The translations under genes were made by a program, and so were the position numbers. 64,000 nucleotides of DNA from contig CBDFIW010000003.1 in the NCBI GenBank assembly GCA_965248255.1, positions 545,239 to 609,238 of the forward strand, written 5' to 3'. Of the stretch, positions 27,492 through 36,724 are shown one piece after another. The stretch's first letter is position 1. Each line of letters begins with the position of its first letter. The notes below the pieces were generated by a model that saw only the letters and a list, made by a program, of their open reading frames with translations, searched no databases and was not told where the DNA came from. This DNA comes from Bryobacterales bacterium (GTDB lineage: Bacteria > Acidobacteriota > Terriglobia > Bryobacterales > UBA6623).

Positions 27492-28475
27492 TCACTTGCG
27501 TTGTGGGCCTGTCACGTCCCACCAGCGGCCGCCGTTGGTGGTCTTGAGTACGCCGCCCTCGCCGCCGTAGTAGAGGGTGGGTGGGTCGGTTTTCGTGTCG
27601 AACACCAGCATCCAAGCGCGGTTGGACCAGCGGAGGCCTGCCGGCTCGAAGGTGCGGGCGCTGTCGATGCTGCGAAAGACTCCGGCGCGTGTTCCGGCGT
27701 AGACGTGCTTTGGGTTGGCGGGGTCGACTGTGATCGTCAAGATGTCCTCCGCCAAAACCTTCTCTCCCGCGGTCCAGGAGACCCCGCTGTCGGCAGATCG
27801 GTAGACACCGCGGGGGTTTGTTGCCTCGTAGAGAACCTCAGGGTCGCTCGGATCGAGAGCCAGAGCGCGGACATCCACGTCGTAGAGGCAGTTAGGGTTG
27901 GTTGTCCATGACTGGCCGCCGTCGGTCGTCTTGTACACGCCGTGCCACGTCCCGGCGTAGAGCGTGGCGGGGTTCGTCGGGTCGATCACGAGAGCACGCA
28001 CTGTCTTGTCGATGAGTCCGCGATTGATCTCGTGCCAGTGGGCGCCACCGTCGCTTGAGTTGAACACGCCGCCTCCATCGGTGCCGGCGTAAAGGGTCGT
28101 ACCGTCGGCCGGATCGATCACAAGGCCGCGGACACGCGAGTTCGAGAGCCCGTGGTTCACCGGTTGCCACGAGCCGGCGGCGTTGGTGCTTTTGTAGACC
28201 CCCATTTCATACGTAGCGGTGTAGATGACGTCCGGGTTCAAGGGGTCGAGGACGATCGCGCGTGGCGAGAGGTTCTCGAGTCCGGTGGAGGGCCAGTTGT
28301 CTTTGCCGCCGCTGATGGTCTTGCACAACCCCTTCGCGGCCCCGGCGTAGATGATCTGGGTATTGGTCGGATGCAGAGCGATAGCTTGGGTCTCACCGCC
28401 TCCCGGAGAACCCATCTGCGCTTGCAGGGGCGCGAGGGCGATCAGAATTGTGGCCGCGCGGACACCTGCCTTCAT
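27492..28475 (-). CDS. Secreted BNR/Asp-box (VPS10-like) beta-propeller protein
   Basis: Signal peptide and repeated units such as ALVIDPTNPATLYAGTWHGVYKTTDGGQSW. ATGA overlap with the upstream gene. Confidence 0.8.
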   Translation of the reverse strand: MKAGVRAATILIALAPLQAQMGSPGGGETQAIALHPTNTQIIYAGAAKGLCKTISGGKDNWPSTGLENLSPRAIVLDPLNPDVIYTATYEMGVYKSTNAAGSWQPVNHGLSNSRVRGLVIDPADGTTLYAGTDGGGVFNSSDGGAHWHEINRGLIDKTVRALVIDPTNPATLYAGTWHGVYKTTDGGQSWTTNPNCLYDVDVRALALDPSDPEVLYEATNPRGVYRSADSGVSWTAGEKVLAEDILTITVDPANPKHVYAGTRAGVFRSIDSARTFEPAGLRWSNRAWMLVFDTKTDPPTLYYGGEGGVLKTTNGGRWWDVTGPQRK

Positions 28476-30445
28476 CGGGTACGCTCCAAGGACCGCCAGG
28501 GAAGGAAGTATGACGGCTTGTTCTTGTAGCGGCGCATTGTGATGCGCAGCGTGGTACCCGCGCCGGGTTCTAGATCGACGCGGAAGAGGGTTCCGTTGAC
28601 TTCAGCTGTCCGCGTCTCCGCCTCCAACGCGTCGCGCGGGCGGACGCCGATTGGCTGGCTCGGCTTGGCGGCGCGGTAGTCTACCGAAGCGATCGTGTGC
28701 TCTCCGTACGCCCCTCCTTGAACGAGCATCCGCTTTGTTTCAAATAGGTTGGTATTGATTAGCTGTAGTTCAACATGATCGTCCGATATCGCTGCAACGA
28801 GGGCCGCGACACCCTGCGGCAGGCCCGGTTCCCGACGGTCTAGGTCGAAGTAGCGCAGCCGCGAATGCAGCATCTCACCGCGCTTGTGGACCGGCAGGCC
28901 GCCGATCGTCAGCCGTACCAGGTTGTCAGTGGGCATGGGTTCGAGAGCCAGCCACTGGGCGTCGAACCAGGTCTCGGGATCGCCGTGCTCGTTGAGAATG
29001 CGTTTGAGCTTCTGGGCGACGAATCGCAGGTCGGACCGCAAGGCTTCTTCGGGGAACGTTGGGTTCGAACCCTTGACGAATTGGGCCCAGCCGAGATCGG
29101 CATCACGCAGCGAGCGGCGAGTCTTGCGCTCGGCGGCGGCTAAGCGGTCGATGTGACGCCGGTCCTCGTCCGACTGCGACATGAACCACAGGTGAACGTA
29201 GGGGGAGGCGGGCTCTGGCAGGTAGTGGTGCCAGCCGTTCTTGTCGTCGTAGCGAATCGGCATCACGGGGACACCGTCTTTGACTTTGCCGCGACCGCGC
29301 ATCACGGCCAACTGGCTGCGCGGGAGTTCGAGCCAATAGTCCTCGCCGGTCAGCAGCGTTGCCACCTTGGCGGCGGTCAGCGTGGCTAAGACGATGTCGG
29401 TGCCGCCTCGCACCCACTTCCAGCCGTAATAGCCACCCCACCAGTTGCCGCTGTTGTACTCGCCGATCCGGCCGTTCAGGCCGACGTTGTCGGGCGTAAT
29501 GCCGTTGTTCTGCTTGGTCAGCTCGACCCACTTGCCGAGATAGTCCTCGATCCACTGGCGGTATTTCTCATCACCGGTGTAGAGGAAGGCGTTCGCCACC
29601 AGGGGCGCGGCGGTGAGGTTGATGGGCACGTCGCCACGCGCCATGCGGTCGCTCATCACCTGGACGATGCGGGCAAACTGGTCGTCTTTGGGATTGTCGT
29701 TGATCCAGCCGGTGGACGACGTGACGCCGGGGATGTCGTCGAACGGCAGATGATAGTAGACGAGGTTGGCGTTGGTGGGAATCCAGTCGCGCTTGGTCCA
29801 ACGCATTTTGGGGCCGCGGCTGCCGTTCATCGACGCCCGCATGAGCCTGAGATCAGGATTGTAATTGGGCGCGTCGGGGTCCTCGCCGGTGTACATGGCG
29901 GCGAATCGAATAGCGCGCTCACGAAACTTGGCGTCGTAGGGATCGGCCATGCCCAGCGGATAGAACGAGACGTAGCCCTCGCCGTGGTGCATCCAGTCCC
30001 AGTTGCTGTCGAACTCGCGATAGATCTGGCCGTAGCGGGAGAACTGCCGGGTGATGCCTTCCCAGACGTGGCGGTGGAGCGTGTCGAGTTGCTTCGAGCC
30101 GCCCAGGATGTGATGCAGCGAGAACCCGCGGAAGCCTTCGTAGGCGTCGTCAGAGGAGTTCATGCCTCCTTCGTAACGCTCCTTCCATCGCAGCGTGCCG
30201 TCGGGCCGCGCGTAGGTCTTGACGAACTCCTTGCCGGCGCGGTCCATCGTTTCGATCAGATGGCGCTCGAGCAATGCCCATTCGGGCGGGGCTTGAGGGA
30301 GGTCGGCACGGATGGTGGGCCAGGGAGGATCGGTTTCCTTCGTCTGCGAGGCCCCGATGGGGGCGGAACAAACCAGCATTGCCAGTACGAGCACCGGCAA
30401 CAACGTTCCCGGCAGGAAGCACGGTACTGTGCGATAACTCTTCAT
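28472..30445 (-). CDS. Large secreted hypothetical protein (~657 aa), possible (alpha/alpha)6-barrel carbohydrate-active enzyme
   Basis: Long ORF with signal peptide MKSYRTVPCFLPGTLLPVLVLAMLVCSAPIGA; aromatic/acidic motifs SDDAYEGF, DWMHHGEG and WWGGYYGW. The fold is an inference. Confidence 0.7.
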   Translation of the reverse strand: MKSYRTVPCFLPGTLLPVLVLAMLVCSAPIGASQTKETDPPWPTIRADLPQAPPEWALLERHLIETMDRAGKEFVKTYARPDGTLRWKERYEGGMNSSDDAYEGFRGFSLHHILGGSKQLDTLHRHVWEGITRQFSRYGQIYREFDSNWDWMHHGEGYVSFYPLGMADPYDAKFRERAIRFAAMYTGEDPDAPNYNPDLRLMRASMNGSRGPKMRWTKRDWIPTNANLVYYHLPFDDIPGVTSSTGWINDNPKDDQFARIVQVMSDRMARGDVPINLTAAPLVANAFLYTGDEKYRQWIEDYLGKWVELTKQNNGITPDNVGLNGRIGEYNSGNWWGGYYGWKWVRGGTDIVLATLTAAKVATLLTGEDYWLELPRSQLAVMRGRGKVKDGVPVMPIRYDDKNGWHHYLPEPASPYVHLWFMSQSDEDRRHIDRLAAAERKTRRSLRDADLGWAQFVKGSNPTFPEEALRSDLRFVAQKLKRILNEHGDPETWFDAQWLALEPMPTDNLVRLTIGGLPVHKRGEMLHSRLRYFDLDRREPGLPQGVAALVAAISDDHVELQLINTNLFETKRMLVQGGAYGEHTIASVDYRAAKPSQPIGVRPRDALEAETRTAEVNGTLFRVDLEPGAGTTLRITMRRYKNKPSYFLPWRSLERTR

Positions 30446-31194
30446 CAGGGACCTGGCCGTCTGATTCAATCGATATCTGAACAAGTCGTGTCCGGGTGGC
30501 ATGTGGCACCAGACTCCCGCCTTACCGTCTCGCGGTTCGTTGCGAGGCAGGTTCGCTCTTCACCACAGCTGTCCCATATCCTGGACCCGGGCCCCCAAGG
30601 ATCAGGACCCGGCAAGCCGGCAGCTCGTGCCAGACAGGGCTTGTTGCCTTCCTGCTTCGAACTGGAAGCAAGTAATCAACGTTCCGTCGCGCCGCCGCCT
30701 GCGAGACAAGGTGGTAAAGTCTATTGTTACAACGGATCGAGTTTAGAGGGCTCGATGGTTAAGGGCGCTTGATGATCCACCGTTGCGTGCTGTTGTCCTG
30801 TTTGGTCCGGGTTACGACAGCAAAATCTTTCTGAGGGTGCTCATGTGCATCCAAATAGCGGCCGTTGCTTTTTTGCCGGATGGTGTACAAGTTGTTGCCT
30901 ACGCCGGTCAGAATCCATCTCTGCGTATTGTTGCTCTGGGCAGTGCGCGTCACCACTGCATAGTCGCGCGCCTTAGTGGCATGTGCATCTAAGTAGCGAC
31001 CCCTGGTCCTTTGCTGAATGGTGTATGTATTCTGGCCCAAGGATTTCAAGATCCAACTCTGCGTATCGTTGTCTTGGGCGGTTCGCGTCACGACCGCATG
31101 GTCTTTCCCCGAGTGCTCATGGGCATCCAGGTAGCGGCTGTTGCTCCTCTGCTGGATCGTGTACACGCCGCGCAATCTATGCGGAGGTGCCTTA

Positions 31195-32288
31195 TTGAAT
31201 CCCGCAAATTATTATGACACTTTTTGACAGTGTGGAGCATCTATATATGTATGGGCAACCCCAAAGGTGTGAAGCGGGATTTCAAGGCGCTGGAGAAGCG
31301 CCGTTTCGAAGCGATGCGGCTGCTCCACCAAGGCCACAATCAGTCCGAGACGGCGAGACGGCTGAACGTCGCTCGCCAAACCGTCAGTGAGTGGCGGCGG
31401 CAATACCGCGAGCAGGGTGCGGCCGGACTCCGCCAGGCCGGGCGCGCCGGACGCAAGCCGCTCCTCGATGCCGCACAACGCGAACGCCTGACGTCGCTGC
31501 TGCTGGAAGGCCCGGAAGCCCACGGCTTCCCAACGCCCCTGTGGAGCTGTCCGCGGGTGGCTCGGCTGATCGGAGACGAGTTCGGGGTCGCATACCACGC
31601 AGGCCACGCCTGGAAGATCCTGCGAGCGCTCGACTGGAGCCCGCAACGCCCGGCCGGAAAGGCGCGCGAGCGCAACGAAGAGCGGATCCGCACCTGGAAG
31701 CGCAAGACCTGGAAGCGCATTAAAAAAAAGCCCAAAACGAAGGCCGTACGCTCGTCTTCATCGACGAAAGCGGATTGAGTCAGAAGCCGCATCGCTGCCG
31801 CACCTGGGCGCCACGTGGCCAAACACCGGTGCTGCAGTTTAACTTCAACTGGGAGAAGCTTTCCGTCTCGGCGGGGCTGACGCTGCGTAACTTCTACTTC
31901 CGGCTCTATCCCGGTGCGATCGGCAAAGAGCAAGTGACCGACTTTCTCAAGGCGTTGGTACGTCATATCGATCGCCCGCTGCTGATCGTCTGGGATCGGC
32001 TGCCGGCGCACCGTAGCCGCCTGGTGCAAGAGTTCATCGAACTCTCCGAAGGCCACATCGCAACCGAGTACTTGCCACCCTATGCGCCGGAGTTGAATCC
32101 GGTGGAATACATCTGGGCTTACTGGAAGCAGCACGAGTTGCCGAACGTCTGTCCGAAAGACTACGGCGAGCTGAACGAGCGGGCCCGCAAGGCACTCCGC
32201 CGCATGTACCGCAAACCGCGTTTGATCACGGCCTTCTGGAAACAGTCTTCTCTTTGTTTTGACTGACTCTATATTATGCGGGAGTCAA
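31195..32288 (+). mobile_element. IS630-family element, copy 3 (1094 bp; orfA/orfB split at A8)
   Basis: TA at 31193-94 and 32289-90; A8 at 31722-31729. Confidence 0.95.
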
Positions 32289-32582
32289 TAGTTCCCGTCC
32301 GGGGAAAGGGTGCCGAGGCACTTGAGGGTACAGAGAGTTTCGGAGGTTTCGGGACTGGAATGTCCGCTTTGGCATTGCTGCTCACCGTCACAGTCCTTGC
32401 CCAATTCACAATCGCTTGTGCATCGTCTCTGAACTGGTTATTCAGCCTCGGGAGTGGCGATCGCCCTCGCAAAGCTGCTGCTGTGTAGTTCGATGCCCTG
32501 TCGGAATCTCCAATCTGCGCGTATGTGCAGCCAAGCATGAAAGCCGTAACTGGTAACGGTACTTGCCCGTAGCTAGCGGTTA

Positions 32583-33674
32583 TTGACTCCCGCATAATAT
32601 AGAGTCAGTCAAAACAAAGAGAAGACTGTTTCCAGAAGGCCGTGATCAAACGCGGTTTGCGGTACATGCGGCGGAGTGCCTTGCGGGCCCGCTCGTTCAG
32701 CTCGCCGTAGTCTTTCGGACAGACGTTCGGCAACTCGTGCTGCTTCCAGTAAGCCCAGATGTATTCCACCGGATTCAACTCCGGCGCATAGGGTGGCAAG
32801 TACTCGGTTGCGATGTGGCCTTCGGAGAGTTCGATGAACTCTTGCACCAGGCGGCTACGGTGCGCCGGCAGCCGATCCCAGACGATCAGCAGCGGGCGAT
32901 CGATATGACGTACCAACGCCTTGAGAAAGTCGGTCACTTGCTCTTTGCCGATCGCACCGGGATAGAGCCGGAAGTAGAAGTTACGCAGCGTCAGCCCCGC
33001 CGAGACGGAAAGCTTCTCCCAGTTGAAGTTAAACTGCAGCACCGGTGTTTGGCCACGTGGCGCCCAGGTGCGGCAGCGATGCGGCTTCTGACTCAATCCG
33101 CTTTCGTCGATGAAGACGAGCGTACGGCCTTCGTTTTGGGCTTTTTTAATGCGCTTCCAGGTCTTGCGCTTCCAGGTGCGGATCCGCTCTTCGTTGCGCT
33201 CGCGCGCCTTTCCGGCCGGGCGTTGCGGGCTCCAGTCGAGCGCTCGCAGGATCTTCCAGGCGTGGCCTGCGTGGTATGCGACCCCGAACTCGTCTCCGGT
33301 CAGCCGAGCCACCCGCGGACAGCTCCACAGGGGCGTTGGGAAGCCGTGGGCTTCCGGGCCTTCCAGCAGCAGCGACGTCAGGCGTTCGCGTTGTGCGGCA
33401 TCGAGGAGCGGCTTGCGTCCGGCGCGCCCGGCCTGGCGGAGTCCGGCCGCACCCTGCTCGCGGTATTGCCGCCGCCACTCACTGACGGTTTGGCGAGCGA
33501 CGTTCAGCCGTCTCGCCGTCTCGGACTGATTGTGGCCTTGGTGGAGCAGCCGCATCGCTTCGAAACGGCGCTTCTCCAGCGCCTTGAAATCCCGCTTCAC
33601 ACCTTTGGGGTTGCCCATACATATATAGATGCTCCACACTGTCAAAAAGTGTCATAATAATTTGCGGGATTCAA
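32583..33674 (-). mobile_element. IS630-family element, copy 4 (1092 bp; A6 tract, fused ORF)
   Basis: TA at 32581-82 and 33675-76; T6 at 33142-33147. Confidence 0.95.
32605..33618 (-). CDS. IS630 transposase, single uninterrupted ORF (337 aa from MGNPKG)
   Basis: HTH region reads through WKRIKKAQNEGRTLVFIDESG into the DDE domain. Confidence 0.85.
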   Translation of the reverse strand: MGNPKGVKRDFKALEKRRFEAMRLLHQGHNQSETARRLNVARQTVSEWRRQYREQGAAGLRQAGRAGRKPLLDAAQRERLTSLLLEGPEAHGFPTPLWSCPRVARLTGDEFGVAYHAGHAWKILRALDWSPQRPAGKARERNEERIRTWKRKTWKRIKKAQNEGRTLVFIDESGLSQKPHRCRTWAPRGQTPVLQFNFNWEKLSVSAGLTLRNFYFRLYPGAIGKEQVTDFLKALVRHIDRPLLIVWDRLPAHRSRLVQEFIELSEGHIATEYLPPYAPELNPVEYIWAYWKQHELPNVCPKDYGELNERARKALRRMYRKPRLITAFWKQSSLCFD

Positions 33675-33837
33675 TAGATGTTTCCCTGCATCGTCGAACC
33701 GCTGCTGATCGTAAGCTCGCTTGCCATTCTTGTAACTCGCTTCGGCGCTCCCGATCGTTGCGTCCGAATACTGTGGTGTCGCAACCGCCGGAAGCAAAAC
33801 AGCAAACGAAATCACAGTCTTCAACAGCAACTGAAAT

Positions 33838-34263
33838 CTATTCAGGGTCATTCTTGAAATCCTCCTCTGTTGAGGAAAGACGACCGCCATCCGTTCCGGC
33901 TCCTGGTTCGAGCCCACCGTTTTTCCTCAGAGCGTCAAACGGCGAATCCCCTTCAGGCACGTCCACGACAGGCGATGGGCCTGGGTTGATCTCGGTTGTA
34001 ACCTCCTTTTCGACGTAAATTGCATAGCCGATCAGAAGGACTCCGAGTAAAACAAACAGCAGCCCTGGCGATACACTTGCGAGGTCCGCCTGAACGCCAG
34101 CCAGCTTCGCCGAAAACTTAAACTGTCCCTTCACCCCGGAACTTATAAGCAGGTATCCCAGCCGAATAGTGAGATAGCCCAAGATGAAGCAAACAATCTT
34201 CATCAAGATGATGAGCCCGAAAGGAATCACGTGATTCCAGAAGCCCATTTCCGTGGCCGTCAT
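33838..34263 (-). CDS. Small two-TM membrane protein, overlapping the start of the TPR/ricin gene
   Basis: Two hydrophobic helices (FGLIILMKIVCFILGYL, SPGLLFVLLGVLLIGYAIYV) and an acidic Pro/Gly tail; 14-nt overlap with the next ATG at 33851. Confidence 0.7.
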   Translation of the reverse strand: MTATEMGFWNHVIPFGLIILMKIVCFILGYLTIRLGYLLISSGVKGQFKFSAKLAGVQADLASVSPGLLFVLLGVLLIGYAIYVEKEVTTEINPGPSPVVDVPEGDSPFDALRKNGGLEPGAGTDGGRLSSTEEDFKNDPE

Positions 34264-34543
34264 GACCGGTTCGAGCCGGGCCATCCGACGGGGATCTCCG
34301 GCTGGCGCATGCTGCGGTCAACCTCTTTCGGTCTCCCTCACCGCGTTTCACTTGTATAAGCGCGAAAACAATCAATGTGGGGTCAGAGTGTACCGTACAA
34401 ACGAGAGTTTTTCCGATTTGGGTTCTCCGCCCTCGGCAGTATACACCTCCACCCGCCGAAACGCAACGAGTTTTTCACGTGTGCGGCCCTTGAATCGCAC
34501 CTGGAGATGGCCTTACCATTGGCAAGTACTTTCTGGTGCACGC

Positions 34544-35524
34544 ATGCCGATCAAGAGCAAGCCCGATGTCGTTGTCTATCGCGGCAACTATCCCGGATGG
34601 CCGTGGGTGGCGTCCGCTTCCGGCAATCGGCTGCTTTGTGTCTTTCGGGACGACGGCATACACGGGTTCTCGCCCAGCAGCAAAGTCGTGCTTACCGAGA
34701 GTCAGGACGGCGGTCGGACGTGGAGCGGTGCCCGGACTGTGGTGGATGACCAAGGGGTCGACGACCGCAACGCGGCCATTGTCGAGCTGCCCGATGGAAC
34801 TTGACTGGTCTGCTACAACAGCTACACGCGAGAGCTGGTCTCGAAGTGCTGGGTGACGCTGTCGCACGACCAAGGTGGAAGCTGGAGTCCGCCAAGCCCC
34901 GTCGCGGACATCGACGCCCGTACCCGCGGCGCCGCGATTGCTCTTTCGAACGGTGACATTCTACTGCCGATCTACAAGGCTCCGGGCAGCGGTTCGGTTG
35001 CCGCGCGGTCGGGCGACGGAGGCAAAACCTGGACGCTTGCTGCTGTGCCTGACACAGACGGTTTCATCGGCGACGAGTGGATCGTGCGGCAGCTCGCTGA
35101 CGGCCGCATCATCGGGCTGATCCGCAACAACAAGTCTCGCGACGGCTACTTTTGGAAGACCGAGAGCCGCAACGGAGGCCTCACTTGGGACGTGCCGTCA
35201 AAGACCAACGTGCAGAGCGACCGGGCACCCTCGCCGCCGCACCTTGACTTTCACGGCGGGACGCCAGTGCTTACCTACGCGGACCGCCGCATGGTGTCGG
35301 TATCGATGGTGATCACCGGCGATCCGGCGTTCCTTCAGTGGGACTTGGGCCACCGGCTGCCGTGTTATCAGTACCGTCCGGATGGCCGGGCGATTGATGA
35401 CGCCAGTTACCCGGTGTCGGTCGCGGTTGGTGAACACCGGCGCTTTGTCGTTGACTATGAGATTCGCGACGGGGGCAAGTGGATTAGCGGGTACTTCGTT
35501 GATCTACCGGAAGGCTGGCGGTGA
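34544..35524 (+). pseudogene. BNR/Asp-box sialidase-family protein with an in-frame TGA at 34802-34804
   Basis: Asp-boxes SQDGGRTW, SHDQGGSW, SGDGGKTW and SRNGGLTW. Reads ELPDGT*LVCYNSY with both halves in the same frame. Confidence 0.8.
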
Positions 35525-35707
35525 GTTCGGGTATGATGTCGGCTCAGCGGCGAGGGTCGAGGCAGGGCCGAATCTGATGAACGGCTGCGAACGATTCCGG
35601 TGTGAACAGGCGGGGAGCGATCGAGACGACAAGCCACGGGTCTCTGCGAGTCCCGCGCTACGCTTGCGACTGAGCGCCGGACGCATCACGGCCCGCATCC
35701 AGCACTC

Positions 35708-36724
35708 GTGAAACTGCCCGCCGGCAAACTGCCCCCGGACTTGCTGCGGGGATTGTTGGCTTCTCTGCCCTCGGACGATTCGTCGGTCGTTGTCGGCGGC
35801 GCCGTGGGGGAAGACGCAGCGGTCCTCGACACCGGCGCACCCGATCTGCTCGTCGTCAAGACCGATCCGATCACCTTTGTGGCCGAGGATGCGGGGCGGT
35901 ATCTGCTCGCCGTCAACGGCAATGACCTGGCGACGATGGGCGCCGAGCCTCGCTGGCTGCTCGTGACGGCGCTCTTACCGGAAGGCATCGATAGCGGCCG
36001 GGCCGTGCAGGTGTTCGAAGACGTCGCCACCGCCTGCCGGGAAACGGGCGTGTCGCTCGTCGGCGGGCACACGGAGATCACCGTTGGGCTCGACCGGCCG
36101 ATGCTGGTCGGCTGCCTGCTGGGTACGGTTGCGCGGGACCGGCTCGTGCGAACGTCGGACGCCAAACCCGGTGACGCTGTGTTGCTGGCCGGCGGGATTG
36201 CTATCGAGGGCGCAGCGATCCTGGCCACCGAGCACGCCGCCGCGCTACAGGAGGCGGGCGTCGATCCGGCGATCATCGAGAGCGCGGCAGGGTGGCTCCA
36301 CTCACCCGGGATCTCGGTCCTGCCGGCGGCGAAGGCACTGCAATCGGCGGTCAAAGTTCACTCCATGCACGACCCGACCGAAGGGGGGCTTGCCACAGCT
36401 CTGCACGAGTTGGCTGAGGCGGCCGGCGTCGGGCTGCGGATCGATCGCTCGGCGATTGCTGCGCTGCCGGAGTGTGAAGTCATCTGCCAGGCCCTCGGAC
36501 TTGACCCCCTCGGGCTGCTTGCCTCAGGGGCGCTGCTGGCCACGGTGGACGAGCGGGATGCAGGTGCCGCCCTCGAGAGCTTGCAGGTCGCGGAGACTCC
36601 AGGAGTGGGAATCGGCAAAGTGCTTTCCCCTGATGCAGGCCTGACACTCGTGTCGGACGGGAGAGAAGGTTCGATTCCGAAGTTCTCCCGGGACGAGCTA
36701 GCTCGGTTTCTCGCGGTGAACTAA
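35708..36724 (+). CDS. AIR synthase-related (HypE/PurM-like) protein
   Basis: MKLPAGKLPP, VGEDAAV, KTDPITF, VNGNDLATMGA, VGGHTE and MHDPTEGGL. Confidence 0.85.
   Translation: MKLPAGKLPPDLLRGLLASLPSDDSSVVVGGAVGEDAAVLDTGAPDLLVVKTDPITFVAEDAGRYLLAVNGNDLATMGAEPRWLLVTALLPEGIDSGRAVQVFEDVATACRETGVSLVGGHTEITVGLDRPMLVGCLLGTVARDRLVRTSDAKPGDAVLLAGGIAIEGAAILATEHAAALQEAGVDPAIIESAAGWLHSPGISVLPAAKALQSAVKVHSMHDPTEGGLATALHELAEAAGVGLRIDRSAIAALPECEVICQALGLDPLGLLASGALLATVDERDAGAALESLQVAETPGVGIGKVLSPDAGLTLVSDGREGSIPKFSRDELARFLAVN

Follow-up and report, generated by a model that had tools for sequence, protein, structure and literature searches.

An accessory ricin-type lectin gene interrupted twice, probably by chance, during an IS630-family burst in a Bryobacterales genome

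Insertion sequences (IS) of the IS630 family, such as IS630 and ISY100, belong to the Tc1/mariner/IS630 superfamily. They are about 1-1.4 kb long, have short imperfect inverted ends, encode a transposase with helix-turn-helix (HTH) and DDE_3 domains, and duplicate a TA dinucleotide upon insertion; for IS630, a CTAG-like target preference is described. IS-rich bacterial genomes undergo IS expansion with insertional pseudogenisation, and the best-known expansions accompany genome reduction. Here, we analyzed a stretch of 64,000 nucleotides (nt) from a Bryobacterales bacterium (GenBank assembly GCA_965248255.1, contig CBDFIW010000003.1, positions 545,239 to 609,238, forward strand). This whole stretch is called the window, and all positions refer to it unless another contig is named. 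It contains a putative lectin gene on the minus strand, running from 33851 to 30759, which is cut into three pieces by two IS copies, A and B. We favor, with good confidence, the reading that this is a chance double knock-out of an accessory lectin gene amid a burst of an IS630-family element. The following features make up the split gene, in its direction of reading:

33675-33851, minus strand: N-terminal fragment, residues 1-59, with a leader resembling a signal peptide and with the first TPR-like helix; its end is the TA at 33675-33676
32583-33674, minus strand: IS copy B, 1092 bp, flanked by TA at 32581-32582 and 33675-33676
32289-32582, minus strand: middle fragment, residues 60-156, with the second TPR-like motif, a capping helix, and a Pro/Ser-rich linker; TA at 32581-32582 and 32289-32290
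31195-32288, plus strand: IS copy A, 1094 bp, flanked by TA at 31193-31194 and 32289-32290
30759-31194, minus strand: C-terminal fragment, residues 157-300 and the stop codon at 30759-30761, with three 46-aa trefoil sub-repeats; it starts at the TA at 31193-31194

Copies A and B are IS630-family elements according to their transposase profile, TA duplication, inverted ends, and length of 1092-1094 bp. The transposase matches the IS630 equivalog NF033545 of NCBIfam with 230.5 bits (cut-off 100) at model positions 1-298/299 and carries the Pfam domains DDE_3 (E 2.3e-26), HTH_33, HTH_28, and HTH_32. The two copies lie in opposite orientation with about 290 bp between them. Their ends are imperfect terminal inverted repeats, which read TTGAATCCCGCAAATTAT... 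and ...ATATTATGCGGGAGTCAA in the direct reading. In the ORF list and the repeat finder, two long inverted arms make up two copies of one element of about 1.1 kb. The copy boundaries were fixed by reading the minus strand and by aligning A against B. Both insertions in the lectin gene used the target CTAA, a YTAR site, and duplicated the TA each time; the YTAR target resembles the preference of IS630. Two differences separate A from B, namely one single-nucleotide polymorphism (SNP), at 31570 in A and at 33299 in B, and an A-run of unequal length. In copy A, a run of eight (A8, 31722-31729) splits the transposase into OrfA (31224-31778) and OrfB (31775-32266). In copy B, a run of six (A6, 33142-33147) gives one fused transposase open reading frame (ORF) of 346 aa (32605-33645).

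The genome (8.0 Mb, 4 contigs) harbors 215 full-length copies of this IS, which make up about 3% of it, and about 33 partial matches; the window itself has four copies. TA flanks both ends of 210 of the 215 full-length copies, and the target is strictly Y-TA-R. Compared with their consensus, the copies show 0-5 nt differences (median 1), apart from two outliers with 7 and 28. This near-identity indicates a recent burst. As in other IS-rich genomes undergoing expansion, there are many near-identical copies, genes cut without other lesions, and several genes that were struck repeatedly. Unlike the best-known cases, this is a large GC-rich genome, and the window has no apparent sign of genome reduction. 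The copy number is also unusually high for a free-living genome of 8 Mb. Another difference concerns the coding region: ISY100 has a single ORF, whereas 184 of the 215 copies here have the A8 run and a split into OrfA and OrfB. A8 puts A_AAA_AAG in the frame of OrfA, and OrfB then requires a -1 shift. A7 occurs in 21 copies and A6 in 9; these A-run variants could also be homopolymer base-calling errors. The closest relatives in public data are, for the most part, likewise annotated as two proteins, an OrfA of about 196 aa and an OrfB of 190-240 aa. As a by-product, the genome offers a well-resolved burst of 215 copies of an IS630-family element whose target is strictly YTAR and whose A-run varies in length. 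At G000:C1:18515-20077, a full-length copy adjoins a 439-bp fragment with only 86% identity to it (query positions 95-533), a remnant in the same genome of an older element that is related to the IS but has diverged from it.

When the flanks were joined by script with one TA kept per site, a single ORF of 903 nt was obtained, which starts with the ATG at 33851, stops at 30759-30761, and encodes 300 aa. The junctions are after residue 59 (..GKHL|TASYGQ..) and after residue 156 (..PRTGT|KAPPH..), exactly in frame as the initial annotation of the window had claimed. Over the 903 nt, there is no lesion besides the two IS insertions, also in agreement with that annotation. The rejoined frame recovers a lectin that gene callers would give as three fragments. 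In its present state, the lectin gene is an IS-made pseudogene, and the upstream membrane-protein gene (see below) is intact. A tblastn search found no paralog of the split gene in its own genome.

The possibility that the fragments belong to separate genes was addressed by a homolog search, which showed that they form one gene. P0003 (414 aa, L044:1458-2702), from a 14-kb ENA metagenome contig, is an intact ortholog that is colinear over both junctions. With residues 1-156, it shares 69% identity, unbroken at residue 59/60. The N-terminal fragment aligns to P0003 residues 1-65, and the middle fragment is 75% identical to residues 67-162. At the second junction, the longer linker of P0003 is the only difference. 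The whole 300-aa product is 66% identical to P0003, with 76% over the last three repeats and an overall range of 66-78%. On the DNA level, L044 915-1652 corresponds to window 34385-33675 and L044 1651-1937 to window 32582-32299. Hence, the homology breaks and resumes precisely at the TA that flanks copy B; the corresponding site in L044 is an uninterrupted CTAG. Between the rejoined gene and the P0003 gene, the ratio of nonsynonymous to synonymous substitution rates (dN/dS) is 0.29, which identifies a real, constrained gene. P0003 has five 46-aa trefoil sub-repeats instead of the three in the window gene, and five is not a multiple of three, as a beta-trefoil would require. Either tandem repeats have expanded here, or the contig, which has 2x coverage, gives an artefact of assembly.

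The ortholog also bears on an assembly artefact, in which repeat-rich contigs would have been mis-joined around the 215-copy element. Highly repeated elements of 1.1 kb are a classic cause of mis-assembly. Here, however, the pieces are in the right order and orientation, the breaks are exactly at TA, and the order is colinear with an independent ortholog. Furthermore, the genome is in only 4 contigs with all 215 copies resolved. We therefore give a mis-join hardly any credence.

Signal peptide, TPR-like domain, Pro/Ser linker, and three-repeat trefoil had been proposed as the architecture of the product, and this order of domains stands, with different strength for its parts. The signal peptide is putative and was judged by eye, so that secretion is a prediction.

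The C-terminal 144 residues match RicinB_lectin_2 (PF14200; E 4.5e-25, 88.6 bits, cut-off 25.6) and Ricin_B_lectin (PF00652; E 6.8e-11, 42.9 bits, cut-off 29). They contain the direct-repeat family D1 with three copies of 138 nt (46 aa), each with YLDAH and a QxW motif (QSW, QRW, and QRW). The nearest PDB sequences are the designed ThreeFoil 3pg0 (1.7e-9), the Polyporus lectin 3phz, and the CBM13-type module of 3vsf. With these ricin-type modules (PF14200/PF00652), the trefoil shares the three 46-aa sub-repeats with LD-x-H and QxW, but here it is joined to a short TPR-like domain and not to an enzyme. Unlike ricin, the product has no A-chain, catalytic, or toxin domain. Carbohydrate binding is predicted from the Asp of YLDAH and the N-x-T-Q-x-W motif, which are conserved in all three repeats. 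The trefoil part, used as the query of a word-indexed search, yielded 225 proteins; in this search, the candidate length of about 300 aa came from a reference extended into the IS, and only residues 157-300 were scored. Trefoil modules with 50-78% identity to the one in the window (P0001-P0120, from metagenomes) sit C-terminally on varied secreted proteins, and their N-terminal partners include matrixin, astacin, trypsin-like, SH3, PASTA, and PF20463 domains. This suggests that the related modules are a widely shuffled glycan-targeting cassette.

For the N-terminal domain, the closest described systems are short tetratricopeptide repeat (TPR) proteins of the periplasm, such as CpoB/YbgF and the C-terminal domain of LpoP (6w5q), and the consensus protein CTPR2 (1na3). 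They consist of two helix-turn-helix pairs and a capping helix. The N-terminal and middle fragments have no Pfam match at E<=0.1 and no NCBIfam match. Among the small homologs of the middle fragment, there are only sub-threshold matches to TPR_2 and TPR_16. An exhaustive phmmer search with the middle fragment against 1.84 billion representatives returned 11 proteins, with P0003 as the top match. They include several proteins of 146-283 aa that were matched at the same position. They also include long multi-TPR proteins (P0121 and P0127, with TPR confirmed by Pfam), which were matched repeatedly via query residues ~13-42. The AlphaFold2 model of P0003 predicts helices at residues 36-54, 58-71, 75-87, 91-103, and 113-130 with a predicted local distance difference test (pLDDT) score of 70-90, that is, two helix pairs and a capping helix. 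The model is confident only over residues ~31-130. Its five-repeat trefoil is below pLDDT 50, which makes fold matches of the whole model meaningless; we used the local TPR matches alone. Nearly all local Foldseek matches (~90-105 columns) are TPR domains, with weak E-values of 0.02-0.2. The best one is the consensus TPR 1na3 with a root-mean-square deviation of 2.2 A over 90 columns and a template modelling score of 0.86 relative to the target, and the P0003 model superposes on both CTPR2 and LpoP. The source of P0226, one of the family members, calls it "TolA-binding protein", which is the name of CpoB/YbgF. Unlike the periplasmic TPR proteins, the window fragments match no Pfam TPR model, and the Foldseek E-values are weak. 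Taken together, sequence and model weakly to moderately suggest a TPR fold, for which "TPR-like" is a fair label, outside the formal TPR profiles.

The SNP that separates A from B is a lineage marker. At alignment column 375 (window 31570), 62 copies have T and 153 have C. Copy A has T and is 1 nt from the consensus, and 16 copies are identical to it. Copy B has C and equals the genome-wide consensus except for its A-run (A6). Hence, A and B are in different sub-lineages and have different donors, which makes them two independent events, as the initial annotation had assumed. Its view that the gene was intact until very recently agrees with the near-consensus sequence of both copies and with a gene that is otherwise free of lesions. 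The order and timing of the two insertions are inferred. An origin as a composite transposon or in a single event was considered and rejected, since the middle piece is natively oriented and the copies carry different lineage markers.

It had further been proposed that the double hit points to an insertion hotspot or to selection for the loss of a surface lectin. This was not supported. In a simulation, 215 insertions were distributed at random over 20,370 YTAR sites, those of the genome without its IS copies, with weights from the observed tetramer use. Adjacent IS pairs within 900 bp were observed 9 times, compared to an expectation of 6.1 +/- 2.4 (P=0.16). The split gene itself has 6 YTAR sites in 903 bp, about 2.5-fold the genome mean of 2.6 per kb, and a GC content of 0.54 versus about 0.63 in the flanks. 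The lectin gene is also not the only one. There are 16 adjacent IS pairs within 1.6 kb, five of which (including the lectin gene) rejoin to open frames that span both sites. In L051 (G000:C4:1205500-1212500), the IS copies start at C4:1207395 and C4:1209412, and the rejoined frame has at least 573 aa. Pfam finds Trans_reg_C on the N-terminal side and TPR repeats on the middle piece, with an IS between them, so that L051 is another gene hit twice. The close pairs in L050, L052, and L053 rejoin to open frames without Pfam support. As the first insertion already kills a gene, the second one is selectively free. Together with the chance expectation, this means that neither a hotspot nor selection is needed.

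Two points weigh against chance as the full explanation. Within 1.5 kb, 15 pairs were observed and 9.6 expected (P=0.05), and this slight excess may leave room for a mild regional preference or local hopping. Moreover, a single genome may be insufficient to disprove selection for loss. Tc1/mariner-type elements hop locally, and a true hotspot or local hop, with a preference beyond the simple YTAR density, would fit the excess of pairs at both distances and the four copies in the window. However, the excess is small, and A and B differ in sub-lineage and A-run, so that A was not copied directly from B, nor B from A. In addition, both sites are the ordinary YTAR motif used across the genome. We consider such a preference improbable. 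Selected loss of a surface or secreted lectin, for example by escape from phages or predators or by a change in adhesion, is even less probable. It would be in line with an accessory gene that probably encodes a secreted glycan binder and with the finding that the IS alone inactivated it. However, the gene was dead after one insertion, and the second one gave selection nothing. Moreover, chance predicts a double hit, and an unrelated gene (L051) was likewise hit twice.

In the chance double knock-out that we favor, the events would be as follows. A small accessory operon, probably horizontally acquired, would have been located on a low-GC islet of about 1.8 kb. It would encode a 148-aa membrane protein, followed by the 300-aa secreted protein with two TPR-like motifs, the Pro/Ser linker, and the trefoil lectin. 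During the recent genome-wide burst of one IS630-family element to 215 full-length copies, two copies from different donor sub-lineages would have landed independently at CTAA sites, duplicating the TA. Copy number, the raised target density in the AT-richer gene, and the neutrality of the second insertion would account for the double hit. In all probability, no dedicated hotspot, selected loss, or switch is involved, and the biology is ordinary. Glycan binding and secretion of the product are predictions from sequence. The locus is a clean textbook case of insertional pseudogenisation during an IS burst and matters little otherwise. Two hits in one gene should be weighed against the genome-wide copy number and the target-site density before a hotspot or selection is claimed.

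Finally, exact excision of both elements could make the gene a reversible on/off switch of the lectin, as deletion of each IS with one TA restores the frame exactly, and copy B encodes a fused transposase that is potentially made constitutively. For A and B, cut-and-paste transposition with staggered end cleavage is assumed by homology to ISY100. In ISY100, the transposase cleaves precisely at the 3' ends and, at the 5' ends, 2 nt within the element; after religation, additional bases are left in the donor between both TA copies (PMC2170065). Cleavage of this type means that excision by the transposase would leave at least a duplicated TA and shift the frame. The literature searched did not describe exact excision for any bacterial IS630 element. 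Host-mediated exact deletion would be inefficient, as a 2-bp repeat is too short for it, and restoring the gene would take two exact events, each independent of the other. If the inverted copies recombined, the 290-bp middle piece would be flipped instead; as this piece is still in its native orientation, no such recombination has happened. The earlier suggestion that precise TA excision could restore the gene is thus unlikely to hold, since a bare TATA already shifts the frame, and we assign a switch only a minute probability.

The gene upstream of the lectin gene is the other part of the operon:

33838-34284, minus strand: intact gene for a 148-aa membrane protein with two transmembrane-like segments; its last 14 nt are shared with the start of the split gene

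The homology of L044 is limited to window 30718-34385, which corresponds to these two genes. A six-frame search with the middle and C-terminal fragments in 60 related genomes, 3 of them of the same genus, found no ortholog; therefore, an allele with only one insertion or none was not available from these relatives. Synteny did not reveal an empty site in the three congeners either, as the flanking genes are not adjacent there. A comparison of the flanks (window 28400-30740 and 34290-36600) with G001 and G003 showed the genes on either side to be 1.25 Mb apart in G003 (6.37 vs 7.62 Mb) and on different contigs in G001, which places the islet at a rearrangement break point. The two genes are an accessory low-GC islet at this synteny break and were probably acquired, presumably by horizontal transfer.

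For the 148-aa protein, 205 homologs were found; the identity is 51-85%, in alignments that cover between roughly half and most of the protein. It has no Pfam domain, and the same is true for nearly all 205 homologs; it also has no NCBIfam match. In all six contexts (L044-L049), the membrane-protein gene is directly followed by a partner gene. The N-domain of the partner is detectably homologous to that in the window in five of them, and the L049 partner gave no significant match. At its C-terminus, the partner has a ricin trefoil in L044, L045, and L048 and another C-terminus in L046, L047, and L049. Tentatively, and with a little less than even confidence, we propose that the split gene and its upstream neighbor represent an envelope module of two genes that is widespread but undescribed. 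Such a module may consist of a highly conserved, Pfam-less membrane protein of about 120-150 aa with two transmembrane segments, together with a secreted partner whose translation is coupled to it. This partner may combine a shared TPR-like N-domain of about 100 aa with a swappable C-terminal targeting domain, which is a ricin-type lectin in the window. If this is true, the IS hits are a natural knock-out of the targeting subunit only. One by-product of the analysis is the hint that a small membrane protein and a TPR-like protein form a conserved pair. In P0226, the membrane protein is naturally fused to a TPR domain, and within the module reading, a fusion of this type points to a direct physical partnership of the two proteins.

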